Both the position numbers and the translations under genes were made by a program. A stretch of DNA of 63,982 nt, counting the filler, from Craspedostauros australis (lineage: Eukaryota): NCBI GenBank assembly GCA_030167865.1. It is 5 parts of 5 records of this genome, joined end to end, with 100 filler letters (N's around TTAATTAATTAA, not from the genome) between each part and the next. Parts side by side here need not be neighbours in the genome. Positions count along the whole stretch, not along the records: positions 1 to 28,692 come from JALAGF010001943.1; 4 more parts are not named here. One strand, given 5' to 3'. The notes below the pieces were generated by a model that made no database searches, was not told the origin of the DNA, and was given only the letters and a program-made list of their open reading frames with translations. This document shows, in pieces, positions 1 through 62,720 of the stretch (position 1 is the stretch's first letter; every line of letters starts with the position of its first letter).

Positions 1-536
1 CCGGCTTGGTGACGGTCCACCCTCGGAGCGGGGTTCCAGTATTATCGTCGCCTCTTCAGGCGGTCCCTGCACGCTCGCACATGCTCGGATGAGCGGATGA
101 GAATGATAAACCAAGTTACGACACACGTGAAACTGATTTAGAGTGAAAAAGAGTAAAGATGCAGATTATGAGTCTTATCGATGTCGTATACGTCAGTGCA
201 GTTGTCTCATTGCTGTGTTGTCCATGATTGGTAGTGGCGGCTATCGTGTAACGTCGTTTCAACGGTTTCATACATATCCCGGTTTGTTTGCAAAGTCGTA
301 CCCCCGATTCCTGACATTCCATTTCCCCTGTAATTCTGACGAATCACAGTATACTATCGACACGAGTGTAGTTATACCGTCCAAGTGCGTATGAGAGAAT
401 AGCGGGTGAACGATGCACATATACTCGTACATCTCGACATATACTCACATGTACATCTCGACAGACTGCAGAAGATCCATATGAGGTTGCTAAGATTGAT
501 CTGAAGCAGTGCTAGTAGGGACACATGTCCACCTTC

Positions 537-3698: not shown

Positions 3699-6245
3699 TT
3701 ACACAGTCGTGTGGAATGACTCCAAGTTCCTGCCAAACTCCTCGATGATCCCCAGGTGCTGGCTGAGTCCGGAGCCAAGATTTGCATTGCCAGAGGACAG
3801 CGTATCTCCAATCCGCAGCAATGGCGCGTTCCCAATCCTTCCCTCTGTCTCGGCGGTTGGTGGCACGACGACGTCGCTGTATATGTACGGTACGTAGGAG
3901 TACAAGCTCGTGATTGGATGCGTGATGCCGGAGTGGCTGGCGAAGAACAGCAGCGTGTAGATCAGGTTGTTCTTGCGGAAGGCGTTCTTGAGGGACATGA
4001 ATTCAACCGGCAGATCGCGAAGGGGCAGGGTCCTGTCCTTGGCATCCTGGAGGAAGTAGTCCAAAATATCGTACTGATCCGGAGTCAGCGACACCATCGC
4101 GCTCATGGTGGAAAAGAAGGGCCACTCTTCCTTCATCCTTTGGTAGATGTCCGGCCGGTAGCCTCTGGATGCGTCCCATCCCCATGACAGCGCGCAGTAG
4201 TCTTCGCAGAGAATGCCATCGACCATGCCACACATCGCCTCGTCGCACAGCGGGTGGTCCGATCGCATGAACTGCCGCATGTACGCATTCCATGAACTGT
4301 ACATGCCTCGCCAGCTTCTCGCAAATCGAAAGTCGTTCAACTTGAGCATGCGGAGTTTGTACGGATCGCCGTTGTCTGTGACTGGATACAGGATGGTGCC
4401 CTGCGATGTTGTCTGCGTTGCGATCTTGGGTAAGACATCGAGCTTCTTCAGCGTTGAGTATTCCGTCTGCCACAAGAACACCCATTTGTAAATTGGGTCG
4501 GAGGTGTTGCGGGCGAGGTCTTTGGACCATTCCGATACAGTGACTTCTGTGTTCGTCGCTGGGAAGGTTGGATTGCTGGTGATGCTATGCACTGTGAAGT
4601 TGTTGTTCACAGAAGATTCAGATGAAACGGAAGGGGCAGGAGCAACGTTCGCAGTGGCGTTGTGTGCACCAAGCCTTTCCAATTTATCAAGTCGATGACC
4701 TGATGCATCGAAAACAACCAGGTTCGGGACATCCGCCAGTAGATGACGATGCGTTCTGATATCCTCGTAGAGGAACTTGACACCCAAGTCACGGTTGGAC
4801 ATGAGAAGCAGCGTTTCGATGACCATCAAGGGTAGGTTTACCTTCCTGTACGCATCGTCATCTGCAATGTCGTAGTTTTCGTCGAGATTTTCAGCGTCGT
4901 CTCCTGCGTTGGTGTCATTTGACGCGGTGGATGCTGTTGCATTGACGGGTGTACCATGTGTTTGATACGCAGGGCCGTACTTGTCCTCTGCGTGTTTGAC
5001 GACTTCATGAAAGTAGTTCATGATGCGTGGATCGCCTCTTCGGAATGCGTTGTAGTTGACCTCGGTGATCCAATTCCGAGAGTACACCTTCTTGCGACCA
5101 GGATGCTCCACCCGCTTCTCAAATACAAGAATACGGATGGCTGCTCCCGTGTCAAGATGATTGAGGATGTTGGCAAGCTGCAATCCGACCGGCCCTGCAC
5201 CGACGATGACGATGTTGAGGGTGTCCTTGGTAAAATGCTCTTGAATGAGCTGTTCGGACGTGTATTGACGGACTGACTGGGATGTGATGGTTGGTGTTTG
5301 TGCTCGTGCTTGTGGTCGCGCTTGCGTGTGTGAATGCGGAGACTGCTGATGTGCTGCGAAAGTGGCATTGGTGCTATATGTCTGATAGTTCGGTTCATCT
5401 CTTGGACCATCGCAGACATACCGCGAATCCAAGCGCAATGTGCAACGAGGAGCGTGGACCAGCTGTTGAACGGTACCCCAGCACTTCGTGGAGAACATGT
5501 CATCCTCCAGCGCATCCGACAGCCGCGAGCAACGCTCCGTCAAGATGTCAAAGTAGTCACCGATGAAGCTTTCCTCGTCCCAAATCAATGGATCCAATCC
5601 TTTCGAGTTTCGGGATTCGGTGCTGTTCCCGCCATCACTGGTACTGTTTGCCTCGCCCGAGGCAACCTTGTCATCGTGAAATCTCTTCAGGTATGGGAAT
5701 TTTTCGAAGAGGTGGGCTTGCTGCTGATCCCAGTTGGCTTCATCGTCCGTTCGCACGTCTTTCTCGCTCGCAACAATCCGTAGCCAGGATTGGGTGTGAG
5801 CATGGATGGATCGGCTGGCTGCCTGCTGGTAGAGTTGGACAAACTGATCAGTGCCAACTGACCAGTTGTTTTCTTCCTTCGAGTCAGGTGCTGGTACTCC
5901 AGTCGGTAAGACCAGTTCTGCGATGCCATCGGCGGGAACACTTGCATCATGCGAGGACGGAGCGGACATCTTGGCGCGATTGTCGCGTTCGGCCTTCCAG
6001 GATGCCGACTTTCGAATGCTCCCATGCCTCTGTCGTTGGCGATACTGGCGTTCCAGTTTCACAGGGCGCTCCATGGGTTTCGTTGGTTTCGCACCGTCGT
6101 GCATGATCGTCGCAGTTGCCACAGCTGGTCGGATCGAAGCATCGTCATGCTGGCCATGCGCCAAACATGCAGCCTCGAGCGCAACGAGGACCAGTAAATG
6201 AAGCCATGCCAGCGCCCATCCTCGACATCTGTGCATGTTGGGCAT
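3699..6245 (-). CDS. FAD-dependent oxidoreductase/monooxygenase-like protein with signal peptide (paralog 2)
   Basis: 848-aa ORF. NIVIVGAGPVG...FEKR, VVFDASG and LLRIGDTLSSGNANLGSG. Signal-like WLHLLVLVALEAACLAHG. Many blocks are identical to 537..2807 (EDDMFST.CWGT, LDSRYVCDGP, NLPLMVIETLLL, LRMLKLNDFRFAR). Confidence 0.8.
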   Translation of the reverse strand: MPNMHRCRGWALAWLHLLVLVALEAACLAHGQHDDASIRPAVATATIMHDGAKPTKPMERPVKLERQYRQRQRHGSIRKSASWKAERDNRAKMSAPSSHDASVPADGIAELVLPTGVPAPDSKEENNWSVGTDQFVQLYQQAASRSIHAHTQSWLRIVASEKDVRTDDEANWDQQQAHLFEKFPYLKRFHDDKVASGEANSTSDGGNSTESRNSKGLDPLIWDEESFIGDYFDILTERCSRLSDALEDDMFSTKCWGTVQQLVHAPRCTLRLDSRYVCDGPRDEPNYQTYSTNATFAAHQQSPHSHTQARPQARAQTPTITSQSVRQYTSEQLIQEHFTKDTLNIVIVGAGPVGLQLANILNHLDTGAAIRILVFEKRVEHPGRKKVYSRNWITEVNYNAFRRGDPRIMNYFHEVVKHAEDKYGPAYQTHGTPVNATASTASNDTNAGDDAENLDENYDIADDDAYRKVNLPLMVIETLLLMSNRDLGVKFLYEDIRTHRHLLADVPNLVVFDASGHRLDKLERLGAHNATANVAPAPSVSSESSVNNNFTVHSITSNPTFPATNTEVTVSEWSKDLARNTSDPIYKWVFLWQTEYSTLKKLDVLPKIATQTTSQGTILYPVTDNGDPYKLRMLKLNDFRFARSWRGMYSSWNAYMRQFMRSDHPLCDEAMCGMVDGILCEDYCALSWGWDASRGYRPDIYQRMKEEWPFFSTMSAMVSLTPDQYDILDYFLQDAKDRTLPLRDLPVEFMSLKNAFRKNNLIYTLLFFASHSGITHPITSLYSYVPYIYSDVVVPPTAETEGRIGNAPLLRIGDTLSSGNANLGSGLSQHLGIIEEFGRNLESFHTTV

Positions 6246-18559: not shown

Positions 18560-21500
18560 ATGACATCGCTGCCGAAGACATCGTCGCCATCCAAGATGAA
18601 GACCTTCAGAGCGAACCTTTTGCTTTCGTACATCCTTTTGGGAGCATTGCACGAGGTGTCGCACATCATTGCAGCCATCATCGCCGCCACCCCTTCCAAT
18701 ACATCGTCACAAATTTGGGGTGCCATCGTCGCCGCAAATGGTGGATCCATCTGTCGCCTACTCTTTCACATCGGCATCCAGCGGCAAGTCAACATTCCGA
18801 CCATCCTCGATGAACGATGCATGTTCTGGATCCGACACACGGGCTGGATCTTCAGCACCGCCCTGTTCATCACCTTGGCGCATTGGTTCGCACGCACGAG
18901 TGCATCATCCGATGACCGTAAACTCAGAAATCCGCACCACAAGGCTCAGTCCACGATCCTCCAAGCACTCGTCACAAACAATTCGGCTGTCTACGCTGCT
19001 GCTATCGTTGCAATCGAGGCTGTATCCACCGATCTGCTGGGATTTCACCCACTTCTCCCGCTCATCTCCGACCCGTCGGTGGCAACGGCGCTGCCATTTT
19101 TCTGCGGAAACTTTGGCGTCATTCTGTTGCACCACAACTGGCTGTCGCACAACCACGGTGAAGCAGCCTTGGAAGTGCTGGAGCGCATGGTCCGCGTCAC
19201 CATGATGAGAGGCGCTCAGTCTGGCGGCGTGGTCACCTACTATCCTAGCACGGCTACTTCCAGCAGCAATACTGGCAATGCGCAAAAGACACCAGGCGAT
19301 CTCGTCGGCATCCGTTGTCGTGTCGTCAACAAGAAGCGGACCAACCTCAGCAAGCTGGTGCGCGCCAAGGTGGACAAGGACATCCTTGACAAGCCCAACC
19401 GCTTCCCCGGTTCCGGTTTCGTCCCCGTCATGTCCGGGCACACCCGCTTTGCGACAACCTCCATTTCCACCCTGGATGGCACGCATCCTCACATTTGGAC
19501 TCCGCCGACCATGCGCCGTGTCTACGACATGACCAAATCGATCAGGGCGTATGCCAAGGAGGGACCCGTGGCGAACCGTCGCGTCGAGAACTACATCACG
19601 CACAACGGAGACTTCGATTTTTACTCTGTCAAAGGCATCAACTACGATCTGGACGTCGTCCAGGCCTGGCTGCAGAGTGTCACACATGCTCCCATGCCAT
19701 CGACGGTCGACTCGTGCGCCGTGGCCGGCATGGTGGACGTGCTGCGCACGCAGGGATGCTTCGGTTTGTCGGCACGGTACGCGTTGGCATTGGGACTACC
19801 CAACAGCGTCATCAGCGATTCGCAATCCAACGGTTTCCCGGAGTACAAGTTCTTCGAGCAGGTGGGCATCATCTTCGAAAAGTCGTTGAAGGAGTACGTC
19901 TCCAACGACGACACCATGATGGACCTCGACACCGACGTCGGCCGCAACGACCTCGCCCAAAACATCTGCGAGAAGATCAAGAAGGACGATGCCGTGCTCG
20001 GCGTTCTCCTCGATTTCGTGGAACCGGACGACATCAACAATACCAAGCAGATCCAGATGATGGCGGACGGCGGCAATGACGATGACGGCAACCGCTTGGC
20101 CACATTGACGGACTTTTGCAGGGCCACGATCGGTGCCTTCTTCGACAACGATCTCTTCTACACCACCAAGACCTTTCTGTCCAGCGCGAAGGGTTCGTTC
20201 GGGTTGGTGGTCTCATCGTCTCTGGATGCGAGACGCCAAATCTGCATCGCCGCGCAAGGCCAGAGCATGTCCATCGCATTCTACCCGTCGAAGGGACTCA
20301 TTTGCTTCGGCTCCGAGCAGGCCGCTGTCAAGTCTGGACTCAACACGCGTCTTCCTGGCGATCGAAGCTTGGAGTCTTCCACACGCGATGTCGACTTGGA
20401 CTCTCTACGACTCGATCTGGATGATCTTGGTGGAGAGATCGTGCTGCTCGATTGGAAGGCGAAGGTGGATCGAGAGACACGCCCAAAACGCACGGCGGCG
20501 GTCATCCCATCACGCTTTGAGGACTCCCACGGCAGCAGCAACGACGGAAATTCGAGCCACATCCTTTCCATGCCCAACCGTCATCTCGCCCGGCACAGCA
20601 TGCTGAATGGAGATGTGACTCTCGTTACATTCAGACTCGACAAGAGCGTGGGGCAGGCCGACACTCTGGTGCAGCTCTTCCATCGCATGACAGCACTGTC
20701 GCGCAATGCTCTGATCAAGCCGCTCAAAGACGATTGCGAGGACCCCATCCTCGAGGACATCAACGAGATCCCGGCCGTGTGCAGGAAGATCCAAGATGAG
20801 TTTCAGGTCTCCAAGGCCCACACCAGCCTGAACAGGCTGGCGGCGTACAACCTCTCGAGTTGCTTGCGGCACCGCCTCAAGGCCAAGCTGGAGGGCAAGT
20901 CGTCTGGCTCCATCGACATCCTCCTCACAGGATGCGAGGTCTCGCTTTGGCTCGCGGAACAGTTTGGATCTGATCTGCAAAAGGCCTTCCCGAAGCTCAA
21001 GATCCAATCCGTCAGCAGCAACAAGCTGCTTGGATTGTTCGGCCAGGAGATCTCCTTGCCTTCGTTCGGCTTTCCGTACTCCCCGCAAACGCAGGATCTC
21101 AGCGACACGATCATCATCATCGTGAGCCAGAGCGGCGGCACCTTCGCTCCGCTCAACTGCTCCAATCTGCTGCAAGGATCCACCGACAACCTCTTCGTCG
21201 TGACGTCGGAATGGGATACGCAGATCGGCAAGCAGCTTCGCAGTATCGACGGCTCCAACGGTGTCAGCCTCGAGAGTGCGCTGAAGCACCGCATCTTCAC
21301 AACGGAGGTTGGAATGCGTCCTGCGGAGCCGAGCTCCATCTCAGTAGTCGCCACGCACCAGCTGCTCACAAACTTGCTGGAATACCTCAGCGCTGTCATC
21401 CTCAGTGACAATCGCTACAGGCGCATCACAGGAACGAGGATGACGGAGCAAGACCTGCAGATCCTGGAACGGTGCAACCAATCCAACGTTTCCGCACTCG

Positions 21501-23560
21501 CCGATATCGTCGGCATCGATGAGAAGGGCGAGCCTGTGCCCGTGGAGGGAGCCGAAAGCACGGACACCATCCTGCGCAACGCCGGCAATCTGTGGGCAGA
21601 GCACATCCTTGAGAACGCACGCGCATACATCATGTGCTTCATCTACGTCTTCGTGACCGTCATCTCTGGATATCCGCTCGCCACGGCCATAGCCTACGGG
21701 GCCGGGTTGGATTCCTCCAGCGACTTCATGTACCTCATCCGACTGGTCGACGCTGCCATCTACTTTTGGTTACCGCAGATCAACATCACGCTGATCCGCT
21801 TGTACCAGGGCCGCAACCTTTTGCATCGCATGGTCGGCCGCACCGTCGTGATTGGCGACATCCCGTGGGTGGCCCAATCCGCGGAGGCCTTCCTCAGCAA
21901 GATTTTCGCGTGCTCGTACAGCATCGCCGGTCTCAATGTGCTGAGTGGCAACGCCGTCGATCACTTGGTCCACCGTCACACCCATCGAGTCGTTCGCGGT
22001 GCGCTCGTGATTTGCGGACGTCCGGACGGTAGACTTTCGGCGTTGTCAACAGCAGAGGCGTCCACGTGCCTGGCCGTCAACCAAGCCAGCAGCATCCAGA
22101 GCTGGGGCGGCACATGCGAAAGCATCACGATCGGCCACAACCCCTTCAAGCTGCCGCTGACGAAGGCCGCGATCTTCCTGAAGCGTCGCCGCCCCTTGTT
22201 CCTGTGCGAGCGCATTCTGCTGGAAGCTGACATTCGCAACGTGAGCGAGAAAAGTTTGGCGACCAGCCTTGATGCCACCGACCATGGTTCCACCTCTGCA
22301 TGGTTCTCAACCAAACGGAGATCATCCAGCATGGGAGATTCGGAGACCGTGCGCGGACGCATCTCCAAGGTGATTGGTCGCAAGTCGCTACTCTCCGGCT
22401 CAAAGCGTGTCCTCGAAGACAGGGCCGAGTTGCACAACAACAGCATCCACCCTGGAGCGATGAAGAAGCGTTCTGCCGTCGCACTCTTGGGAGCTTACAG
22501 CAACCTCGAGGATGGATCAGGCAAAAAGAAGAATCTTCGTAACAGCATGAGCATCGGTGACAATGATGACGCAAACGAACCGTCACAATCGCTTCACATG
22601 GCAAGCCTGTCACTCAGCAAGCATCAGAACATCGTGCTCGGGCACACCACTGGAAGCCGCATCCGCTCACTCCAACGTCCTTCCATCGGACACCCACCCG
22701 CTTCCACCACCCTGTTGACTTCTCAGGAAGAAGTTTCCACGTTGAGGGACGGTGTTGATCTTGACTTTGTCCTCCGAAAGATCAGGCAGAAGAAGAAATA
22801 CTCAGATCAGCTGCAGAAACTCTTCAGCGCTCTCGATGTCGACAAGAAGGGCTTCCTCGAGGAGAGCGATTTCTTGCAACTCCCAAAGCACATCAACATC
22901 AAGCTTGCGGAGGAGCGGCTCCACGAGATCTTCAAGGAGGCCGACGAAGATAAGACCGGCAAGATGGACTACAGCGAGATGGTCACCATCCTTGCGAAGT
23001 ACAACATTGGCGACGATGCGCTCATTCTACCTCCCAGCAACCGCGACGAAACCGGCATCATTCGTATCGAAGCCAGCAAGGAGAGGTACTTTGGATTCAA
23101 TCTGCGCAAATTCAATGCGGGCAAATCCAAGGACACCGTCGACTTTTCCGTGGCCAAGAGCCAGCACTTCGCTCAAGAGCTGTACGAGACGAGGATCGCA
23201 TCGTTGCAACGCTTCGTTGCCATGACAGTCATGTTCCATCAGATGGGCAAGAGAGTGCAGAAGTTCTTTGAGATCATCTCCTTCGGATGGTGGGGGTACC
23301 GTATGGATCGAACGCATAGCATCATGCGCATTGCAACGACTGCATCCCCCGTGAGCGGAGCGGATGTTCGCGAGCAGATGAAGTACATCCGGTTGGAGAA
23401 GAAGCTCCAGAAATCGATCAACACGATATCTGGGGCGTACTTGCGCCACAAGGACAGGAAGGAAGCAGCCCGCATCAAGGGTTTGGAGAAAAAGGCCATG
23501 AGGGTAATGGACGATGAAGACAAACATCTTGACCAACCGAACATCCCCACAAGAAAATAG
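18560..23560 (+). CDS. Multidomain membrane protein: HExxH membrane module + class II (Ntn) glutamine amidotransferase + GlmS-like SIS domains + TM pair + two EF-hands
   Basis: 1666-aa ORF. HEVSH at aa 31-35 inside a hydrophobic helix. GATase-II motifs CGNFG (Cys182), RGAQSGG, GHTRFAT, HPH and HNGDF. SIS motifs LLTGCEVS and VSQSGGT. Two TM helices at about 21620-21805. EF loops DVDKKGFLEESD and DEDKTGKMDYSE. Confidence 0.85.
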   Translation: MTSLPKTSSPSKMKTFRANLLLSYILLGALHEVSHIIAAIIAATPSNTSSQIWGAIVAANGGSICRLLFHIGIQRQVNIPTILDERCMFWIRHTGWIFSTALFITLAHWFARTSASSDDRKLRNPHHKAQSTILQALVTNNSAVYAAAIVAIEAVSTDLLGFHPLLPLISDPSVATALPFFCGNFGVILLHHNWLSHNHGEAALEVLERMVRVTMMRGAQSGGVVTYYPSTATSSSNTGNAQKTPGDLVGIRCRVVNKKRTNLSKLVRAKVDKDILDKPNRFPGSGFVPVMSGHTRFATTSISTLDGTHPHIWTPPTMRRVYDMTKSIRAYAKEGPVANRRVENYITHNGDFDFYSVKGINYDLDVVQAWLQSVTHAPMPSTVDSCAVAGMVDVLRTQGCFGLSARYALALGLPNSVISDSQSNGFPEYKFFEQVGIIFEKSLKEYVSNDDTMMDLDTDVGRNDLAQNICEKIKKDDAVLGVLLDFVEPDDINNTKQIQMMADGGNDDDGNRLATLTDFCRATIGAFFDNDLFYTTKTFLSSAKGSFGLVVSSSLDARRQICIAAQGQSMSIAFYPSKGLICFGSEQAAVKSGLNTRLPGDRSLESSTRDVDLDSLRLDLDDLGGEIVLLDWKAKVDRETRPKRTAAVIPSRFEDSHGSSNDGNSSHILSMPNRHLARHSMLNGDVTLVTFRLDKSVGQADTLVQLFHRMTALSRNALIKPLKDDCEDPILEDINEIPAVCRKIQDEFQVSKAHTSLNRLAAYNLSSCLRHRLKAKLEGKSSGSIDILLTGCEVSLWLAEQFGSDLQKAFPKLKIQSVSSNKLLGLFGQEISLPSFGFPYSPQTQDLSDTIIIIVSQSGGTFAPLNCSNLLQGSTDNLFVVTSEWDTQIGKQLRSIDGSNGVSLESALKHRIFTTEVGMRPAEPSSISVVATHQLLTNLLEYLSAVILSDNRYRRITGTRMTEQDLQILERCNQSNVSALADIVGIDEKGEPVPVEGAESTDTILRNAGNLWAEHILENARAYIMCFIYVFVTVISGYPLATAIAYGAGLDSSSDFMYLIRLVDAAIYFWLPQINITLIRLYQGRNLLHRMVGRTVVIGDIPWVAQSAEAFLSKIFACSYSIAGLNVLSGNAVDHLVHRHTHRVVRGALVICGRPDGRLSALSTAEASTCLAVNQASSIQSWGGTCESITIGHNPFKLPLTKAAIFLKRRRPLFLCERILLEADIRNVSEKSLATSLDATDHGSTSAWFSTKRRSSSMGDSETVRGRISKVIGRKSLLSGSKRVLEDRAELHNNSIHPGAMKKRSAVALLGAYSNLEDGSGKKKNLRNSMSIGDNDDANEPSQSLHMASLSLSKHQNIVLGHTTGSRIRSLQRPSIGHPPASTTLLTSQEEVSTLRDGVDLDFVLRKIRQKKKYSDQLQKLFSALDVDKKGFLEESDFLQLPKHINIKLAEERLHEIFKEADEDKTGKMDYSEMVTILAKYNIGDDALILPPSNRDETGIIRIEASKERYFGFNLRKFNAGKSKDTVDFSVAKSQHFAQELYETRIASLQRFVAMTVMFHQMGKRVQKFFEIISFGWWGYRMDRTHSIMRIATTASPVSGADVREQMKYIRLEKKLQKSINTISGAYLRHKDRKEAARIKGLEKKAMRVMDDEDKHLDQPNIPTRK

Positions 23561-24101: not shown

Positions 24102-27100
24102 CTATTTCCGCCACTGCCTTCTCTTGTACGGCGCCGACATCTGCTCCACGATATCGCGCCCCTTCTTGGCCCATTCACGCCGATTCTCCATGGCATAGTT
24201 GAGACATTCATCCGAGCTGACACCAAACACGCCGCACTCCTTCAATTTCTTCGCCAGCGGGATGATGTAGTTGTCGTAGAACTTGAGCTCGCCTTCGTAC
24301 CAGCTTTGGGACGGATTTTTCTGGGATCGTCCGGAGATATGCGCATGCATCATCTCGTGGAACAGCCGCTCGTTCCATTTCTGGTAGACGTGCCAATGCT
24401 GCATAGTATGGGCTACATCCGAGGCCTGGATGAGATGCTCAATGACGATCGTGGCCTTCCTGTTTGTGTCGACGGTTTTGCTGGAGTCTGTACTGCTGTT
24501 GCTGCTAAAGGCTCTCTCCCACCGATTCTTTCGCAGCGTGCTGAGCTCGGCGTCAAAGATGTCCGTGGCCAGAACGGAGTTGACCATGAGTTGCCGGAAT
24601 CTCTTGAGCTCGTGCGCGTCCGTGTAGATGCAGTTCCTCAGACTGTCAAACTTCGGTTGCATGAGTATGTCCCATGCCAATTCGATGGAGTTTTGTTCTG
24701 CCACGCTCTTGTTCTTGAACCGCTTCGCAAGGCGTTCATTCTCAGCAAGGAGGAGGAAGTTGGGGACCCCAACATGATCCACATCATGGATGAGAGCTGA
24801 GAGGACGACAGCGAACTGTGTGAGTGGGTCCGACGTGATGCCGTATGTGTGGTCATGGAGGCATTGCGCGCGGTCCTGGCCATCCTCTTCGATGTCTGGT
24901 GCCACTATTCTGGAAAGAAGCTTCGTGACTGACATAGTGACGTGCGATGCGTGCTCGAAGTTGTGGAAGGAGTTGTTGCGGTACATCGAGGCGATTGTTC
25001 CCACGTAGAGTTCGAGTTGAGCGTGGACCTCATCGCTGATGACGGCCGGAGCGATGTTCTTGAAAGACTTGATCGAGTTGCGGTTCTTTGAAAATCCTGG
25101 GAGACTCACGAACTCTACGACCTCATTCAAGGGGTAGCTCCTTTGACAGATCATCTCCTCCGTGTTGGCGAGGGACCCATCAACGGAACGATTCGTGGAA
25201 GTCGGCTGGCGCTTCTCGATCATCACCAGCAACAATCTGGCAAGGATGTCGACGTTCCATTTAACCAAACGTTGCTGTTTGGGTGTGCTTTGGAGGTATC
25301 TTGGGAGCTTGTCCATCGCGCTCTGGGACTGTCTCAAGATGGGCGGTGTAGATGGAAGGCTAACGGCAGCTGGGCTGCTCTGTTGGCATGCCGTCATGCC
25401 ATGACCCGACGCACCGGGGATGTTTGATTGTTGGTCTGCGCCAGCCGTGCTCGTGGCTTCGGTGATGGAATCTCCGGTTCTCTCCGCCGTGTCCTTGGAT
25501 TGAAGCCAGAAAGTTGTAATGGCCCCCTTGCCTTTGGCAACAACGGTCTCGTCTCGCGGCATGATCCAGGCCTTCTTACCTGCAGCGATGAGCAGATTGG
25601 CTGTGCTTTCCGACAGGTGGATGCGACCGCGCGCACCGGTGGCCTCGACTCGAGCTGCTGTGTTGACGGTATCGCCGAACAGCTGGAATCTGGACTTGTC
25701 GCCGCGGAGGACTCCAGCTGTGACTGGTCCCGAGTGCAGGCCCATTCTCATCATGAGGTCGCCGGTGTCAGGTCCCAACGTCACTTCGAGCATCTTCGAC
25801 AGCTCGTTCATCTTCTTCATGCAATCGTTGGCAAAGCGTGCCATGATGACGGCATGGTCATCCCTTGGTTCTGGAAGTCCAGCCACGGCGACGTAGCAGT
25901 CCCCGATCGTCTCGACTTTGAAGACTCCGCGCTTGTTCGCGATCGTGTCGAATGCGCGGTACACGGTCTCAAGAAGCATGAAGACCTGCGTCGGTTCACG
26001 GACGGAGCTCCACGCCGTGAATTTTACGATGTCGGAGAAGAGGACTGTTGTGTTGGGGAAGAGATCCGCGATGGGCTTGGTTTCGTAGAACACGCCATCC
26101 AACGACGGGGTCGGTGAGGTGCTTGTCTCATGAAAGAGCTGGCGGTTGGGGTCGACGGGGCCCTTCGACTGGAGCTTGCCTTGCGTGTGCAGGTTGATGG
26201 CGCCATCGTGCGGCTCGGATGTCATCATCTGCTCCTTCTCCTGCATCAGCCGTTCCCGGACCTTTGCTGGGAAGAGGGAGGAAACGATGGCGTTGGATTT
26301 GACGGCTGCATTTTGGACCTTGCTTTGGCGTCGTTGTACCAAGAAGTCGTACCCAAGGAACACGGCCATGGTGAAGATGAACAAGGCCGCGACGGCAGTA
26401 GCTAGGAACACTGGCGTATCCGTGCGATACGATTTCTCCATCTCCTCCGATGGGTACAGATTCAGCGTGTAGATGCAGGTCTTGCCGCCCACGGTGGTCC
26501 GCTCCGTCTCTAGCAGCTGCTCATCGGTGAAGGTGGTCACATGCCCCATGTCGGTGTACTCCTCGGAATGAAAGTCGCCCAAGCCGAGATAAGACACGTT
26601 GGGGCCATCAATCTGGAAGGAGAATCTATCGCCGCAGGAGCTTCCGAGCACTGCGATGATACCCTTGGAGTTTTCCTGGATGACGTTCGTGAAGTAAAGC
26701 TCCCAGGGGATGACGGCGACGAGCATTCCCACGACTTGCTTGCCAGCATCGTGAAATCGATCGAAGACTGGCTCGACAAGGATGCTCTTTGGGTGTATCA
26801 CGACAATTTTGTCTTTGTCTTTACCCAGGGCTTCGAGGCCAAAGATGGTCGTTGGATCCGAAACCTCCGACAACGCCGGGCGCTGCGTTTGTTTGGACGC
26901 CTCGAAGACATCGGCTATGACGTCGTAAGAGCAGAGATCCGAATTGATGAAGTTCTCGCTCCGAGGTGGTGGGCTTTGCTGCCACAGAGGACAGTGAGTC
27001 TCCCTTGGAGGAGAATCGACGAAACGACCTTCATTCTTCACGTCAAAGATAGACTCATGGATAGGTGTCGGGGTCATTTCTCTGCTCTTCGTGTCATTCT

Positions 27101-27984
27101 CGAGGTCAAGCGACTCCTGGATCCAGCCTTGATTGTTCACCGAGTAGTCGGACCATCGGCTGAGCTGGTCGAGATTGACGGTTGGCGCGAATCCAACCAT
27201 GAGAGCACCTGAGACGTGTCTGTAGTTGCGTCCCCGGATTTCGAAGTGCGGGATCGTCACGAAGGGGAACGTCGTGTTGCTGGTCTTGCTCAGATCGTAA
27301 GACGTGACGGAGTCTCCAAGGCCTGCAATCAGATCCAGCGCATTCTGGAGGTTTTGCTTCGTGACATACTCGATTTCGTTGGCGTAGTCGTGGAACTAAA
27401 CATAAGTGTCAGTACGGGTATGAGAGCGAGTACAAGGGTGGTACATCGCGGTGGGACGTGATGTCGCAGAGTGGAGAACGCATCAGGAGCGCGGTCATGG
27501 AATGCGAGTGTGCGGCATCGTGAGTGAGTGAAGTGCGATGGTGACGAATGAAAAAGAGGATGGAGATGGACGTACGGATTCATGCAGCATCGTGGAATGA
27601 TGGCCGAAGGATACCGGCGCTTACCTGAAGTTCGAAATCGGATGTCTCCGCCTCCCTGGCGAAGTGGAAAGCGAGGCCGCTGGCGATGCCGGCAGATACG
27701 AGCAGCAACGAGAGCATGCATATCTTGGACCAAAACACTGCCCTGGCTTCCTCTGCTGCAATTTCGGTTTCCTTGGCCGAACGCGGTTGCTTCTTTGCAC
27801 CACCGCGCTGTGAAGACGCGGAACTGCTCCATCCGATTGAATTCCCAGTGGCGGATTGCTCGTCGGAGATGCCGCTGACTGACTGGCTCAGCGCTCCATC
27901 GCTGCTGTCTTTATCGCTGTCGTCGCCATACTTTCCGACGGCACTGCCGTTGCTCGCGGTCGATTGCGTCGTGTAGCCGACCAT
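24102..27984 (-). CDS. Receptor-type nucleotide (guanylate/adenylate) cyclase fused to a cyclic-nucleotide phosphodiesterase, two exons (~1217 aa)
   Basis: Exon 1 27984-27625 contains TM1. Intron 27624-27396 (GTAAGC...TTTAG), phase 0. Exon 2 27395-24102 encodes an extracellular domain and TM2, then the class III cyclase (VLFSDIVKFT, KVETIGDCY, RMGLHSGPV, RFQLFGDTVNTAAR) and the PDE (FHNFEHA, IHDVDH, LATDI, IQASDVAH). Confidence 0.92.
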
Positions 27985-30456: not shown

Positions 30457-33400
30457 CTATGGAGACGGTGATTGTTGCTGCTGCTTGGGAGTTGGCGGAG
30501 CAGGTACTGCACCATGTCCTTGATTCTCATCCAACGGAACATGCACTGAGTGTTGCTGCGGCTGCTCCTGCCGCAGTTGCGATTCGTAAAGTTGGTTTGC
30601 GTGGGCATGTTGCATGGCAAAGTTCCTTCCATCGCCATGTTCGTAGTTGTGCTGTGGTGATGGCATCACCTGCTGGCGGTGGTATGTGTAGCCGTACTGT
30701 TCGTCATGCTGACGATGGTCGTATTCGCTATGGTAGTACCGCACCTGGTTCGGCTGGACGGTGACGACGTCGCTGTCGTTGGCTGTGCAGGCAGGTGGTT
30801 GAGCACAGGAGATCAGCCGCTGCTGTGGCATTGGCACGGCCGTGTTTTCGGGAATGGCATTGCGATCCAGACCGCACGCTGACTTCTCCAATTCCTCTCC
30901 AAGGAAGATGAGCAGATCGTCTTGGCGTTCTGGCACTTGCTTCGATGTTGCGTCGAGGTCGCGGTCCAGCACTCCCATCATGCCACCGACTTCATTTTCG
31001 GAGAGCCCAAAGTTTGGAAGGTTATTCGCGATGGATTGGAGGTATGTGTAGGATGATGTGAAGAAGTTGGAATCATCGCTGTTCGTATTGGAATTGCTTG
31101 TGACATCGTTTGCCTTCACCTCATCTTGTTTCAGTTGCTGCTGAGGGTTTTTTTTTGTTGCGGTTTCACCATCGTTCCTTGAGACAGTCTCCGTGATGGT
31201 CGTTGTTGTGGTCGACGTTGCGCCCGCCATGGTCGCTGCGAACCACCCTTGCATCTCCTGTTGCTGGCTGGTGAAGAAGGTGCGTGCCAGCGGATGGAAC
31301 TGAGATGCTGTTGGTGGTTGTGTCGATGCAGCCGTCGTGCGAGTGCTCATGTTCGGGTTTGATGCGATCATGATTGGTGTGGCGGGATCTGAACGCATCC
31401 AAGGGACGATACCGTTGCTAGGGTCCGTTGCCATCGATGTGGAAATGTTGTGGTGCTGCTTGTGCGGCATTTGGACCGATGTCATCGCAGTTGTCGACTT
31501 CGAAGCTGACGATATCATCATGCTGTCTTTGGTGGCGGAAGTGGTGGTGCTATGAGAATCCATGGTCGTTTGCCTTCCATCTCTTCCCAATCCGTCCTCC
31601 ACAAGATCCAGCAGTCGTTCTCCGATCAGTGCTGTGCTGTTCCCTGTCTCTTCTCCTGATGCCGCCGTGGGTTTCTTCTTGTCTGATGTTGTGGCGCCGG
31701 TGATTGCTGCGGCGATGGCGGTGATTGCTGCGGCGGATGTGGCCACAGCAGTAGCGGACGCTGCCGTCGATGCAGCAGACACAGTGGTTGTGTTTGAAAC
31801 GCTTTCCTTGATGGTGTGTGACGCTTGAGGTCCGTTGGTTGCATTCGTTTCGACCTTGGCAAGCCGTTCTTTGTCGGTTGCTGCATGAGATTCCACTTCT
31901 ACCGCTCTCACGCCTGTCTCTCTTTCATCAACTGATGCTGGTGCCGCTGTTTGGGTCGTCTCTTCTTGCTGCTTATGTTGCGGTGCGTCCGTCTCGCCAT
32001 CCTCCCGTGCTTCCTGGTTCTCGTCTTCCATTGATCCCTGGTCGACCACAACATCAGCTTCTGCGATCTGTGTTGTGTCGATGATCAGGTTGCCATCACC
32101 AGAGAGAGTCTCCTTCAGACGATCGAAGATGTTGATGGGTTGGTGTGTGATGGGAGATGGAGGATCCTGGCGTGGCGTGGGTGGGCCCTGGAGTGGACCG
32201 CCGACGCATTCATCTGGATCGCGACCCATCACAATATGGCCCCTGCTGTGGCTTGCGTTCGCATTTGTTGGGCTGCTCGCGTACGGTGTTGGTGTTAGGG
32301 TCAGTGTTGGCGTTGGCATGACGGATGGCTGTGGTGTGCCATCAGCTGCGCAGTCAACTGTGGATTTTTGGGAGTTGGGCAGGCCGGCCGCGCTTTGCTC
32401 CAATCCGCCATCCGACTTCAGCTCGACTTTGGGGTGAGAGTTGGTGGTGGCGTTGTTGAGGTTGGAAGTGTTTGTCTTCACGCCTGCGCTATCTTCAATC
32501 CAGAGGTCCAGATCTCCGCGATGCTCGGACGGTTCCAATCCATGGGCTCTTGATTTCTGGTCTGTGGGAGTGGTTGTTGAAGGCGCTGTACGTGTGCCAT
32601 CAGGACCGGACGTCACCGCATTCATGTCCTTACTGATATCATCGATGCCATGGACTGGCGTGTCTGTGACATCAAAAGCGGTCATTGCGGCAACATTACC
32701 GGTCACCGCCACGGCAGCAGCAGCACCGGCTCCAACGCAAGCAGAGAGTACATTGTTGGTGACAGCTGTTGGTTGGTCAAGTCTGGTGCTCTCCATGCCG
32801 ACGTCCGAAGCCTTGGTGGTGGTGGTGGTGACCGTGTGTGTATCCGTGTTGGACCCGTCTGTATTGTGCGTTATCACGATCGCGTCGCTGCTGCTGCGGC
32901 TGTCGCTGATGGGATCGACCTGGGCAACGTCTCCTGTCTTGTTGCTGACAACCGGTGTTTTCATGCAAACAGATTCAGTTGGGATAACGGCACGATGGAG
33001 GCGAATGTTGGAGTTTTTCATCCTGTGGACCATGCTGGTGCTGTTCATTCTGGGTCCGGCCATTCCCGTTGTGCGCATGGACGGTGTCTTGGAAGTGTGT
33101 GTTGTTCGAGTGGTCTCGGCACTCAGGATGCTCGCACTGTCGGAGAGCCTCCAGTTCGTCGAGTCTCTCCACGAGTCGACAGTCTCCTCGTCTGGGTGGA
33201 AGTCGTTCTGTTCGAACGGCAGGCCGTGGCGCATTCGAATCGGCGGTCGATGAAGCGATTCAGCAGACAGACTGTCAGTGAGCATCTCAGGAGTCTTGGC
33301 AGCGGATGATGCATGAGGATGTGCATTCGTGGCCGTTGGTGCGAGAGTGGAGACGGGTGCTTGTCTTGGTGTAGCAAAATCGTTGGAGTTCGCCACACTG

Positions 33401-35388
33401 CTTTCGCTGGATGGACTCATGACAGAGCTTGCGACAGGTGGTTGTGCCTGTGTCTGTAGTTCATTCTGCGTGCGTCCAAGTCGCTGCATGTTGTGGTTTC
33501 GTCCGATCTTGGGCGCAATATCAATGATCCGGTGACGTGTGTTCCTGGAGCGGCTGGCCTTGTTGGGCGACCGTGGGGGCAACTGCTGGATATGCTGTGA
33601 GGCGCTGTCGCCTGGATTGATCTCACTAGGATCCTCCTGGACGCTCGTCAAGAACCTGGTAGACGAAAAGTGGCTGCTGTCCACATCGACGAGAAGGATG
33701 GGATGATGTGCGCTATTGTACGAGAGGCCGTTGCGATCCATCTCCATCTTCAGCCTGCGCTGCTGGACATCCAAACCAGATCCGTTTGCGCTGCTAGGAA
33801 GGTTTGTGTGTTCGGTCATTTCGGAGACGACGGTGCGAGAGTCGTCGGAATCCGTGTGGGTGGTCTTCTCCGGAACTTCGATGGCATCCGGTGCGCGGAA
33901 CTCAGGGATGCTGAGATCATGATCATGGTCATGATCGCCAGGATTGACGCTGTCGCTGTACTCCTCAGATGAGTCTTGTCGCTTCGCGGACGCTATTGGC
34001 AGGAAGCTGATGCGTGGTTTGGCGGAGAGCTGCGCCGTTTGATTGTTCACGTTGGCAGTTGGCTTCTTCGCCACGGAATCAGCGGGTGCCATATTTGTGT
34101 CTGCGGGAGCATCGTTTGCGTCAATGTCGATGGTCTTCGTAGCTGGCTTGGTTCCTTCGATGACAGGAGTGTGATGCTCTGCTTTTTTCGATGCAGCTTT
34201 GGCATCTGCAGTAGGCCCACACCGAGATGTGGCCTTGACCGTGGTGGTGGCAATAGAAGTCAACCCGCTTACACGGCTCTGTCCTCTTGCCTTGGTGTGA
34301 AAGATGGCTGGTGATTTCAAGCCAGATGTCGGTGTTTTGGGCTTCGTAGCGCGAGTGTTCGCGACGACACCGGTGGCCTTCGGTGAAGTTGCTGCAGTCG
34401 TTTTTGGTTTGCTGTTGCTGTTGCTGATGTCAGTGTCGTTGAGGGTCAGGTTGGTGATGAGGGGTTTTCGCGCGGTGCTCTCGGGCCGTTTGCTGTTTCT
34501 CAACTTCGCAATCTCAGCTTGGTTTGCGGCGCCCAGGGCGGCATGGTCCATCTTTTGGGCTCGGAATGGGCGACGTGGAGATGGGCGACGTGGAGATGGG
34601 CGGCGCGCGCCATCCGGGGTTGGTCGAAGGTACGATGTGGGCCGTCTCGATGAGGCTCTTGGTGTCGATGTGGGCGAGATGTGCGAGTTCATCCCCTCCG
34701 CCGCATCATTGGCAGTGACATTGCCGGTGGGCGTTGCCATCACCTGGGTTTGAGATGAAGCTGGAGGTGGCACAATGATTGGGAGTAATGGCGACGTTGT
34801 GGATGGCTTCGCGGAGCGGAATCGAGGCACGTTGGTGCTTCGCTGGGTTTCGGTGCCTTGCCTAACCGAGACCTCCGAGGCATTGCTCCTCTGCCTGGAT
34901 TCCATCGTGCGTGCTTCCTTGGTCTCTACGACGTTGTGCGCGGCCGCACCCGCGTCGTCGTGCAGACGAATGGGGCTGTCTGGCGTGGCTCTCGATCTGT
35001 TGGATGCGCTGTACCGATCGATGATAAGTTCCGTCTCGTCAGTCAACATCGGCCCGTTGCCATGCTGACCTTTGCCGCCAGCATCCTTCATCCACTTGCC
35101 TCTGCGCACGGCTGATTTGATGTAGAACTCGCGCTTGCGCGCGCGGATCTCCGCCAAGCGCTCAATGGCTGACATCTCGGGCTGATCCTCCATGTCTCCC
35201 TGTTTCGCCCGCGTCGTTGCCAACGCTGCAAAGGACGGCGGGGGTGGTTGCGGTGTCATGACGGGCTGTTCCAATACGCTGGAGAGCCTTCTCTGGCAAG
35301 AATGCCTTCTCGAATCTGCGTGGACACTTCGTCCAACGATTGCACCAGCACTCTCTCTCTCTCCTAAGCTGTCCTGAACTCTGTGCAC
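30457..35388 (-). CDS. Large low-complexity, probably disordered protein (1643 aa)
   Basis: Uninterrupted 4.9-kb ORF rich in T/S/A/P/Q, with RRPSP repeats and no recognisable domain. The start codon is uncertain. Confidence 0.75.
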   Translation of the reverse strand: MHRVQDSLGERESAGAIVGRSVHADSRRHSCQRRLSSVLEQPVMTPQPPPPSFAALATTRAKQGDMEDQPEMSAIERLAEIRARKREFYIKSAVRRGKWMKDAGGKGQHGNGPMLTDETELIIDRYSASNRSRATPDSPIRLHDDAGAAAHNVVETKEARTMESRQRSNASEVSVRQGTETQRSTNVPRFRSAKPSTTSPLLPIIVPPPASSQTQVMATPTGNVTANDAAEGMNSHISPTSTPRASSRRPTSYLRPTPDGARRPSPRRPSPRRPFRAQKMDHAALGAANQAEIAKLRNSKRPESTARKPLITNLTLNDTDISNSNSKPKTTAATSPKATGVVANTRATKPKTPTSGLKSPAIFHTKARGQSRVSGLTSIATTTVKATSRCGPTADAKAASKKAEHHTPVIEGTKPATKTIDIDANDAPADTNMAPADSVAKKPTANVNNQTAQLSAKPRISFLPIASAKRQDSSEEYSDSVNPGDHDHDHDLSIPEFRAPDAIEVPEKTTHTDSDDSRTVVSEMTEHTNLPSSANGSGLDVQQRRLKMEMDRNGLSYNSAHHPILLVDVDSSHFSSTRFLTSVQEDPSEINPGDSASQHIQQLPPRSPNKASRSRNTRHRIIDIAPKIGRNHNMQRLGRTQNELQTQAQPPVASSVMSPSSESSVANSNDFATPRQAPVSTLAPTATNAHPHASSAAKTPEMLTDSLSAESLHRPPIRMRHGLPFEQNDFHPDEETVDSWRDSTNWRLSDSASILSAETTRTTHTSKTPSMRTTGMAGPRMNSTSMVHRMKNSNIRLHRAVIPTESVCMKTPVVSNKTGDVAQVDPISDSRSSSDAIVITHNTDGSNTDTHTVTTTTTKASDVGMESTRLDQPTAVTNNVLSACVGAGAAAAVAVTGNVAAMTAFDVTDTPVHGIDDISKDMNAVTSGPDGTRTAPSTTTPTDQKSRAHGLEPSEHRGDLDLWIEDSAGVKTNTSNLNNATTNSHPKVELKSDGGLEQSAAGLPNSQKSTVDCAADGTPQPSVMPTPTLTLTPTPYASSPTNANASHSRGHIVMGRDPDECVGGPLQGPPTPRQDPPSPITHQPINIFDRLKETLSGDGNLIIDTTQIAEADVVVDQGSMEDENQEAREDGETDAPQHKQQEETTQTAAPASVDERETGVRAVEVESHAATDKERLAKVETNATNGPQASHTIKESVSNTTTVSAASTAASATAVATSAAAITAIAAAITGATTSDKKKPTAASGEETGNSTALIGERLLDLVEDGLGRDGRQTTMDSHSTTTSATKDSMMISSASKSTTAMTSVQMPHKQHHNISTSMATDPSNGIVPWMRSDPATPIMIASNPNMSTRTTAASTQPPTASQFHPLARTFFTSQQQEMQGWFAATMAGATSTTTTTITETVSRNDGETATKKNPQQQLKQDEVKANDVTSNSNTNSDDSNFFTSSYTYLQSIANNLPNFGLSENEVGGMMGVLDRDLDATSKQVPERQDDLLIFLGEELEKSACGLDRNAIPENTAVPMPQQRLISCAQPPACTANDSDVVTVQPNQVRYYHSEYDHRQHDEQYGYTYHRQQVMPSPQHNYEHGDGRNFAMQHAHANQLYESQLRQEQPQQHSVHVPLDENQGHGAVPAPPTPKQQQQSPSP

Positions 35389-62620: not shown

Positions 62621-62720
62621 NNNNNNNNNNNNNNNNNNNNNNNNNNNNNNNNNNNNNNNNNNNNTTAATTAATTAANNNNNNNNNNNNNNNNNNNNNNNN
62701 NNNNNNNNNNNNNNNNNNNN
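62621..62720. other. Assembly gap with artificial TTAATTAATTAA linker
   Basis: N44-linker-N44. Confidence 0.95.

Follow-up and report, generated by a model that had tools for sequence, protein, structure and literature searches.

A site-2-protease-like membrane module directly precedes the internal catalytic-type cysteine of a divergent algal GlmS/GFAT-type amidotransferase: a possible membrane-tethered zymogen

Background

Amidotransferases of the N-terminal nucleophile (Ntn) type need a free alpha-amino group on their catalytic Cys, and enzymes of the GFAT type form the entry to amino-sugar synthesis. Site-2 proteases (S2Ps) are described as sharing a core of three transmembrane (TM) segments, in which the HExxH and Asp motifs lie on separate segments (PMC10202637). 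In one of them, SpoIVFB, the zinc ligands are given as H43, H47 and D137. Before this enzyme cuts pro-sigmaK, it is reported to bind the pro-sequence, which joins the reentrant loop behind the HExxH helix as an additional beta-strand (PMC11486902). TmcP, a four-helix protease of the DUF3267 family, is likewise reported to remove a leader peptide in the membrane, an activity that is lost in an H68A/D158A double mutant (PMC13712780). Here, a gene is described that combines a domain resembling the core of these proteases with a domain resembling the glutaminase of GlmS and GFAT. It is encoded on the plus strand, at positions 18560..23560, of a stretch of 63,982 nucleotides from Craspedostauros australis (assembly GCA_030167865.1) that consists of five parts joined by filler letters, with positions 1 to 28,692 coming from JALAGF010001943.1; the window refers below to the whole of this stretch.

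The gene is an uninterrupted, intron-free open reading frame (ORF) of 1666 aa (P0001) with 0 internal stops, and all of its features given below are on the plus strand. Along the protein, an S2P-like membrane module is followed by a linker, a GlmS/GFAT-like glutaminase, a SIS-type region, a pair of EF-hands and a conserved C-terminal block. A preliminary description of this DNA had pointed to an HEVSH motif in the first hydrophobic helix, to a CGNFG motif that starts at an internal Cys182 and not at the N-terminus, to the lack of Met between the TM helices and this Cys, to three helices of which the last ends in STD, and to C-terminal EF-hands, and all of these features are present as claimed. 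That description had also proposed that the first module could be a zinc protease which unmasks Cys182, and it is this proposal that is weighed below.

Results

The N-terminal module is a conserved domain

The N-terminal membrane module (aa 1-165; 18560..19054) has a core of three long helices and a site-2-protease-like fold. Helix 1 (aa 10-42) contains H31-E32-x-x-H35 (HEVSH, encoded by cac gag gtg tcg cac at 18650..18664), which supplies two candidate zinc ligands and a candidate catalytic Glu. Beyond this helix, R75 of an 'lgR' motif and then a short strand at aa 77-80 (together 18782..18799) stand in the place of the membrane-reentrant beta-loop of S2Ps. A conserved GWxxS block, G95-W-I-F-S99 (18842..18856), is found in helix 2 (aa 85-115). 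Helix 3 (aa 142-159) holds E153 and T157-D158 (19016..19033) and is closed by S156-T157-D158; D158 (codon gat, 19031-19033) is the candidate third zinc ligand and the acidic E153 lies five positions upstream of it. Kyte-Doolittle 19-mer peaks were found at aa 25-43 (1.89) and aa 144-162 (1.62), which belong to helices 1 and 3, whereas helix 2 stays below 1.5; a further and unexpected peak is located far downstream, at aa 1024-1042 (1.84).

A homolog search with aa 1-700 identified 167 relatives, of which the best 120, with 32-46% identity, were used. These come from diatoms, which include the best ones, and from Aureococcus, Pycnococcus and Durusdinium. In the source databases they are named as hypothetical, EF-hand or calmodulin proteins, or as 'Glutamine amidotransferase type-2 domain-containing protein', and the orthologs could be aligned with the 1666-aa ORF over its full length. 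Several are ORFs from transcripts labelled 'type:complete', in which the module and the glutamine amidotransferase (GATase) share one frame. HExxH was found in 105/121 sequences; among the 16 others, 3 start after the Cys, 11 start inside the module, 1 has HELLGH and 1 has a different upstream sequence, and most of the 11 that start inside the module retain the later RH.GW and/or E..TD blocks.

Column counts were taken from a MAFFT alignment of the 118 orthologs that reach the Cys, 108 of which also reach the HExxH columns. Among these 108, H31 is kept in 107, E32 in 106 and H35 in 107, and D158 is an Asp in 117/118 orthologs. The preliminary description had named loss of the HExxH in orthologs as refuting its proposal; this motif and the distal Asp are kept almost throughout, and the proposal was not refuted on this point. 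Other positions of the module are constrained as well: position 75 is Arg in 109/114 and Lys in 5/114 sequences, G95 is found in 108/115, W96 in 100/116 and S99 in 115/115, position 153 is Glu in 88/118 and Asp in 29/118, and position 157 is Thr in 104/118 and Ser in 12/118.

An exhaustive search with a profile built from 31 sequences of the module alone, in which matches at E<=1e-3 were counted, gave 386 representatives of 50% identity clusters, 234 of them at E<=1e-10. Architecture was inspected for the best 150 of the 386 matches, and 142 of the 150 were new. HExxH is present in 141/142 of these new representatives and the E/DxxxTD motif in 142/142. Downstream of the module, 122 carry CGNFG and 2 carry CGNLG or CGNVG, giving a total of 124 with CGN[FLV]G; the other 18/142 end or turn low-complexity 19-107 aa past the TD motif and look like truncated calls or intron read-through. 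Five sequences (P0221, P0232, P0255, P0212 and P0258) have low-complexity sequence immediately after the TDLLG..P block. This pattern suggests an intron at the boundary between module and enzyme in some lineages; the gene in the window has none. No stand-alone or otherwise fused module was seen among the best 150 of 386 profile matches, and a search for short stand-alone modules (61-317 aa) gave 2 matches, both of which are truncated family members containing CGNFG.

The N-terminal 165 aa are a conserved domain, and the HExxH in its membrane helix is not there by chance. Since the H/E/H/D residues are invariant, the module is a domain and not a mere anchor or targeting peptide; the idea of a targeting peptide or simple anchor was rejected on these grounds.

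The predicted fold of the module resembles the core of site-2 proteases

The module alone was modelled with AlphaFold2 (AF2) from an alignment of 135 sequences, which gave a confident fold (predicted local distance difference test, pLDDT, 83.6; predicted TM-score, pTM, 0.78). Besides the long helices at 10-42, 85-115 and 142-159, the model has short helices at 49-59, 64-74 and 129-138 and only two strands, each of four residues, at 77-80 and 177-180, the latter corresponding to P5-P2 counted back from Cys182. Together with the hydropathy peaks, the AF2 helices give the module the three-TM core that is typical of S2Ps, and the HExxH lies inside a TM helix, as it does in those enzymes.

The model was compared with 48,161 representative chains of the PDB by VIA-align, a structure search independent of Foldseek, and the first four ranks were all occupied by S2Ps. 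Kangiella RseP (7w6z) ranked first, with Z 6.8, a root-mean-square deviation (rmsd) of 3.6 A over 118 aligned residues and 15% identity; the S2P of M. jannaschii (mjS2P, 3b4r) ranked second (Z 6.4, rmsd 4.1 A, 123 aligned, 13% identity), SpoIVFB (8vjl) third (Z 6.3, rmsd 3.9 A, 111 aligned, 12% identity) and Aquifex RseP (9j83) fourth (Z 5.8, rmsd 6.0 A, 140 aligned, 12% identity), all with scores in the range below 8 that is taken up again in the Discussion. Unrelated chains begin at Z 5.5 and only 13 chains reach Z 5. That a predicted model should find, at its four top ranks, a single family with HExxH in a membrane helix appears far from chance. With the register read from the ends of the aligned ranges only, and not from a residue-level alignment, residues 25..142 of SpoIVFB on 11..163 of the model place D158 opposite D137 and H31 no more than 2 residues away from H43. 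The spacing from HExxH to Asp in the family has a median of 110 and a minimum of 80, compared with 94 in SpoIVFB and 90 in TmcP.

At the level of sequence, 0 Pfam families were found in the first 181 residues of the window protein, and the ESM Atlas gave no usable match for the module alone. E. coli K-12 and 301 sampled genomes of its phylum yielded no PF11667 match, and profiles of M50B and RseP were used for comparison instead, the former from 27 Peptidase_M50B proteins drawn from 30/301 of the sampled genomes and the latter from 76 RseP proteins. In hhalign, the module matched M50B with a probability of 70.9% over 15 columns (E 3.8e-05) when represented by the 31-sequence profile, and with 56.2% over 18 columns (E about 1e-4) when represented by a 230-sequence profile. 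A single RseP sequence gave 1.9%, and column-shuffled queries (10/10) gave <=0.1% against each target. A relaxed hhalign run placed the G95-W-I-x-S99 block on 'AGPiAN' of RseP and on 'aGY.Ga' of M50B; G95...S99 may be the counterpart of an S2P 'GxxxN/S/G' motif, a correspondence that is unconfirmed in print and serves as a lead only.

Membership in Peptidase_M50 or M50B, for which the preliminary description had suggested a profile comparison, was not borne out, and neither was membership in DUF3267, with Pfam silent and the hhalign matches confined to the HExxH helix. The S2P-like identity itself held in the fold (VIA-align ranks 1-4), the three-TM core and the HExxH, and failed in the Pfam M50/M50B models and in the Pro that is expected beside the Asp; a conserved Asp is found on a separate helix, in a context other than the L-D-G of S2Ps. 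Taken together, the S2P-like identity of the module is well supported, and the module is best described as S2P-like in fold and candidate ligands and as a new, divergent family near clan MM that lies outside M50, M50B and DUF3267. It would bind metal and could act as a protease.

The catalytic-type Cys is blocked by the module and a variable linker

A variable linker (aa 160-181; 19037..19102) leads from the module to the enzyme and ends in P-F-F, giving hydrophobic P3-P1 residues; it is a putative pro-sequence or substrate segment. It is followed directly by C182-G-N-F-G (19103..19117), whose catalytic-type Cys (TGC, 19103-19105) opens the first beta-strand of the glutaminase domain. This Cys is not an N-terminal residue left by removal of Met, being residue 182 and preceded by Phe, and the window protein is free of Met between M88 and M210.

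Among 265 collected proteins, 244 contain CGN[FLV]G. In these 244 sequences, the residue before the Cys (P1) is Phe in 111, Leu in 49, Tyr in 46 (Phe, Leu or Tyr in 206/244) and His in 16, and P2 is Phe or Leu in 199, resulting in a consensus of [T/V/I]-[F/L]-[F/L/Y] directly before the Cys. Met was found at P1 in 1/244 (P0144, in which the full upstream module is still there) and a Met-Cys-Gly start in 0/265 proteins; removal of Met can therefore not expose Cys182. The distance from the Asp to the Cys has a minimum of 12, a median of 22 and a maximum of 53 in 243 sequences, with 21 sequences at exactly 14. This spacing, which the preliminary description had proposed to check, is variable.

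Because the alpha-amino group of the Cys must be free, the precursor is expected to be inactive. The invariant site suggests an active glutaminase, and in that case the chain has to be cut ahead of Cys182, a conclusion that is well supported.

The remainder of the protein is a very divergent GlmS/GFAT-type amidotransferase

Curated models are silent on the enzyme part: in Pfam and NCBIfam, only EF-hand families were matched at E<=1, with no GATase or SIS model among them, and a search of PDB sequences with the window protein matched only its EF-hand part (calmodulin). An AF2 model of aa 1-1200 was built from 59 aligned sequences (pLDDT 76.9, pTM 0.70). In Foldseek, it matched human GFAT-1 (6svp, E 1.7e-11, prob 1.00) and E. 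coli GlmS (2j6h, E 3.4e-11, prob 1.00), with TM-scores normalised to the target of 0.51-0.56 for these two, as well as the isolated GlmS glutaminase domain (1xff, E 5.7e-05) and SIS isomerase chains (3tbf, 8eym, 3fj1 and others, E about 1e-4); PurF chains (1ao0, 6czf, 1ecf) were matched more weakly, at 7.8e-05 to 4e-04. The neighbours of the protein in the ESM Atlas are SIS and GATase+SIS clusters, with scores of 0.87-0.91. Based on the Foldseek matches and on colinear motifs, the class II (Ntn amidotransferase-type) glutaminase, with large insertions, covers approximately aa 182-700 (19103..20659), and based on Foldseek and an SxSGG loop, the SIS-type sugar-phosphate isomerase region covers approximately aa 730-1290 (20747..22429), its limits being approximate.

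In the 1-1200 model, a strand at 182-189 begins at Cys182. Invariant in 109 aligned members are C182-G-N-F-G, R217, H294-T-R-F-A-T299, H348-N-G-D351 and D384-S385, as well as S856 and S858-G-G860 of the phosphosugar loop. Aligned to E. coli GlmS in a relaxed hhalign run (-mact 0.05), the glutaminase region has F181-C182 on M1-C2 in precursor numbering (fCGNFG on mCGIVG), R217 on R27, H294-T-R296 on H72-T-R74, H348-N-G350 on H98-N-G100 and D384 on D124. As the overall probability of this alignment is only 5%, the register rests on motif order and the fold match and not on the score of the hidden Markov model; default hhalign recovered the HTRFAT block only, with a probability of 1.6%, and the -glob mode was meaningless. 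The glutamine-site residues of GlmS, which are taken here to be Arg26, Arg73, Asn98-Gly99 and Asp123 in mature numbering, correspond to R217, R296, N349-G350 and D384, all of which are invariant and colinear with GlmS.

The protein is thus a very divergent GlmS/GFAT-type amidotransferase with an internal catalytic Cys. The preliminary description had assigned class II GATase from the motif; curated models do not recognise it, but the fold search and the motif register agree with the assignment.

A hydrophobic helical pair (aa 1001-1036 and 1056-1083; 21560..21808) lies within the SIS region, where AF2 helices, the third Kyte-Doolittle peak and the consensus of the orthologs coincide. This pair may form a second membrane hairpin and is perhaps membrane-embedded; more speculatively, and by analogy with the partner protein TmcE (PMC13712780), it could stand in for gating helices, which minimal S2Ps do without. 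It is located ahead of a block with a GRTVVIGD-type motif. This motif presumably resembles the start of the second SIS subdomain of GlmS. The EF-hand pair is found at aa 1416-1480 (22805..22999), with matches to EF-hand_7 (E 1.6e-10, 41.6 bits, cut-off 30) and EF-hand_1 (E 5.3e-10, 38.6 bits, cut-off 25.4). Beyond the EF-hands, a strongly conserved C-terminal block at aa 1574-1603 (23279-23368), with the consensus SFGxxGYRxDRTHSIMRIATTASPVSG, had no Pfam match.

Other ORFs in the window

Adjoining the gene downstream, a 1052-aa ORF on the minus strand (24102-27260) encodes a fusion of an adenylate/guanylate cyclase catalytic domain (E 2e-45) with a 3'5'-cyclic nucleotide phosphodiesterase (E 4.4e-29). 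Further along are a PP2C phosphatase ORF (36587-38128, +, E 1e-25), an ORF with a C-terminal DUF6824 (56722-58800, +, E 3.7e-19) and pieces of a copia-type retroelement (59981-62668, +) with gag (Retrotran_gag_2, E 1.1e-14) and a Pol beta-barrel domain (E 2.8e-14) in adjacent ORFs. Taken with the diatom origin of the best relatives of the protein, these ORFs indicate a nuclear genome of a diatom-like kind. The long ORFs at 537-2807, 3699-6245 and 30457-35388 had no Pfam match at E<=1e-5. Two long ORFs overlap the conserved coding frame, of 260 aa at 18905-19687 (-) and of 178 aa at 18669-19205 (+), and probably stem from the high G+C content of that coding sequence instead of being genes.

Discussion

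Cleavage by the built-in protease-like module

Taking into consideration that a blocked catalytic-type Cys stands directly after an S2P-like domain, the reading favoured here, tentatively and with a little less than even confidence, is that the protein is a zymogen in which the S2P-like prodomain makes a cut at F181|C182 or close to it, either in cis or across subunits, and thereby exposes the amine and detaches the enzyme. The gene product would be a divergent glutamine amidotransferase of the GlmS/GFAT type, tethered to the membrane as a zymogen, and its first 165 residues a minimal, divergent S2P-like (MEROPS clan MM-like) intramembrane zinc-metalloprotease core. By analogy with the topology of SpoIVFB, the linker and enzyme would leave helix 3 towards the side on which S2P active sites are open. 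The segment before the Cys would then fold back and extend the loop behind the HExxH helix by one beta-strand, as substrates of S2Ps do. A cut at F181|C182, or immediately ahead of it, would follow, made by the module of the same protein or of a partner subunit, and Cys182 would be exposed and the enzyme detached from its N-terminal anchor. The two strands of the module-alone model, 77-80 and 177-180, are consistent with the beta-augmentation seen in SpoIVFB, and we infer from this model that they pair in the substrate-binding mode of S2Ps. The site of the cut is putative, cutting could proceed in cis or in trans, and the process may be regulated. With regard to the original proposal of a zinc-protease module that unmasks Cys182, the protease-like domain and the blocked Cys therefore stand, and the cutting by the module itself stays conditional.

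A number of observations weigh against this reading. Some of them concern the identity of the module. Foldseek with the module against the PDB gave nothing at E<=0.001, its best match (E 0.36) and others being generic helical membrane proteins, and S2Ps were absent among the listed matches. PF02163 (Peptidase_M50) matched only 2/31 modules, with a best E of 0.2, and PF13398 (M50B) and PF11667 (DUF3267) matched 0/31, all at E<=10; the module profile, run against PDB sequences, gave no S2P and only a pilin at E 0.71. The hhalign matches are limited to the HExxH helix (15-28 columns), and the profile of 76 RseP proteins was matched with a probability of only 6.4% over 28 columns. VIA-align itself cautions that Z <8 may reflect a common helical arrangement, and the S2P scores of 5.8-6.8 are within this range. 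The context of the Asp is TAxEAxxTDLLG, that is T-D-L-L-G and not the L-D-G of S2Ps. A Pro beside the distal Asp has been named as a hallmark of the clan (PMC13712780), and in the 118 orthologs Pro is not among the frequent residues of any helix 3 column (143-158). At position 153, where the module carries Glu or Asp, the S2P motif presumably has this Pro.

Other points concern the cut. Once an Ntn domain has folded, the bond that precedes the nucleophile is found deep in the active site, at the base of its cleft, and a membrane-embedded site would probably reach this bond only before or during folding. In the model of aa 1-1200, the linker (166-181) is disordered, with a pLDDT <50, and undocked from the module, and strand 77-80 is missing; docking appears only in the module-alone model, at a pLDDT of about 66-70, and is not a robust prediction. 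Moreover, class II amidotransferases such as GPRAT reportedly shed their propeptides by autocatalysis (PMC7056826), and because such propeptides leave in this way, a protease is not required to expose the Cys. Finally, the view that the module occurs only with this enzyme draws on the best 150 of 386 profile matches.

Other explanations

The main rival is autoprocessing, in which Cys182 itself attacks the F181-C182 bond through an N-to-S acyl shift, as in other Ntn enzymes and in amidotransferases of the PurF type; this is a possible explanation, though a doubtful one. The module could in this case be an anchor that holds the enzyme at the membrane up to its self-cleavage, a means of clearing the stub, or a protease for another membrane substrate. 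Ntn hydrolases are described as being made as precursors that then autoprocess (PMC9140057), and the propeptide of GPRAT whose autocatalytic cleavage yields an N-terminal Cys is a short N-terminal one (PMC7056826). The invariant catalytic machinery of the glutaminase and the disordered, undocked linker of the long AF2 model also fit such a mechanism. What autoprocessing leaves unexplained is the intact HExxH...D site (107/108 and 117/118), which always comes directly before the Cys, as well as the sharp minimum of the linker (12, with 21 sequences at 14) and its hydrophobic P3-P1 residues. In addition, the propeptides known from the literature cited (PMC7056826) are short, whereas a folded membrane domain of 110-290 residues is found here.

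It is unlikely, at best, that no unmasking takes place and that the protein is an S2P-type protease with a sensor, in which a large, cytosolic part with the GlmS-like region and the EF-hands would respond to glutamine, sugar phosphate and Ca2+ and the blocked Cys would bind glutamine without hydrolysing it. S2Ps do carry fused domains, such as PDZ in group I (PMC10202637) and CBS in SpoIVFB (PMC11486902), the fold of the module is S2P-like, and EF-hands are present. The invariance of C182-G-N-F-G and of the glutamine-site and phosphosugar-loop residues in 109 sequences goes beyond what binding needs, however, and the conserved P1-P3 residues beside the Cys would be without explanation. The module also does not have the extra helices of full S2Ps, in which it is like the partner-dependent DUF3267 enzymes.

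Similarly improbable is a metal-binding membrane anchor or transport-like element, the likeness of which to S2Ps would be due to a common three-helix arrangement and a convergent HExxH. Z-scores <8 may come from helical packing of a common kind, the Foldseek matches were generic helical membrane proteins throughout, the S2P models of Pfam were unmatched, and LIV-1 zinc transporters reportedly have HExxH-type motifs in TM helices. On the other hand, ranks 1-4 of 48,161 chains all belong to the S2P family, the register agrees at both motifs, and the Glu of the HExxH, for which a pure metal-binding site has no need, is kept in 106/108 orthologs.

A gene-model or expression artefact, in which the enzyme would start internally or come from a transcript of its own that begins close before Cys182, and the frame upstream would be unrelated, is hardly credible given the lack of Met between M88 and M210, the near absence of Met at P1 (1/244, with MCG starts in 0/265), on which an internal start was rejected, the 'type:complete' transcript ORFs of orthologs that hold both parts in one frame, and the strong purifying selection on the module.

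Possible significance

No description of this fusion or of this algal family was found in the literature, in agreement with the preliminary description, which knew of no such system. The parts are of known kinds, their combination is new, and the S2P-like identity has been missed by current family models. The joint form of the favoured reading, that is, regulated intramembrane proteolysis by the enzyme's own prodomain, with a cut exactly before Cys182 at the membrane face, release from the anchor and timing by Ca2+ through the EF-hands, seems rather unlikely as a whole. If it were true, it would provide both the first case of an intramembrane protease that is fused to the protein it cuts and the first of an Ntn enzyme with a dedicated metalloprotease built in for its activation. 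An intramembrane metalloprotease core that serves as the propeptide of a zymogen would represent an unrecognised form of enzyme control, would join the regulated proteolysis of S2Ps to the maturation of Ntn hydrolases, two fields without known overlap, and would extend the S2P clan, in eukaryotic algae, by a new branch of divergent sequence. Even if autoprocessing holds, a conserved S2P-like domain as the prodomain of an amidotransferase would still call for an explanation. The family occurs in diatoms, a pelagophyte, a dinoflagellate and a prasinophyte and is widespread in marine phytoplankton; speculatively, a membrane-bound form with EF-hands might bear on the control of chitin, cell wall or nitrogen status in these primary producers.

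Comparison with known systems

Of the described systems, the S2Ps (M50, clan MM; RseP, SpoIVFB and mjS2P) are closest to the module, with their three-TM core and with HExxH and Asp on separate helices, and the strand-type loop after the HExxH helix matches the reentrant beta-loop by which they capture substrate. SpoIVFB, in removing an N-terminal pro-sequence, performs a job parallel to the one presumed for the module. Unlike these proteases, the module consists of the core helices only, without a PDZ or CBS domain, and its presumed substrate is part of the same polypeptide, in which the cut would create the catalytic N-terminus of an enzyme, an arrangement for which the literature searched gave no example. 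TmcP (DUF3267, PF11667), with four TM helices, is also small, lacks gating helices and has an HExxH and a distal Asp (H68...D158, spacing 90), but is reported to be a bacterial protein in its own right, which cleaves a separate peptide and depends on TmcE, a partner with two TM helices (PMC13712780); the algal module comes from eukaryotes and forms one chain with its presumed substrate.

On the side of the enzyme, GlmS and GFAT share with the window protein the glutaminase and SIS folds, the Cys, Arg, HTR, HNG and Asp motifs and the SxSGG loop. Identity amounts to about 11%, and the window protein differs in having its Cys at the internal position 182, insertions that run to hundreds of residues, a pair of hydrophobic helices in the SIS region, C-terminal EF-hands and the extra conserved C-terminal block. 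PurF/GPRAT enzymes resemble it in being class II amidotransferases in which an N-terminal extension hides the catalytic Cys (PMC7056826), yet this extension is a short, autocatalytic propeptide, whereas in the algal family its place is taken by a folded, conserved, protease-like membrane domain of roughly 110-290 residues.

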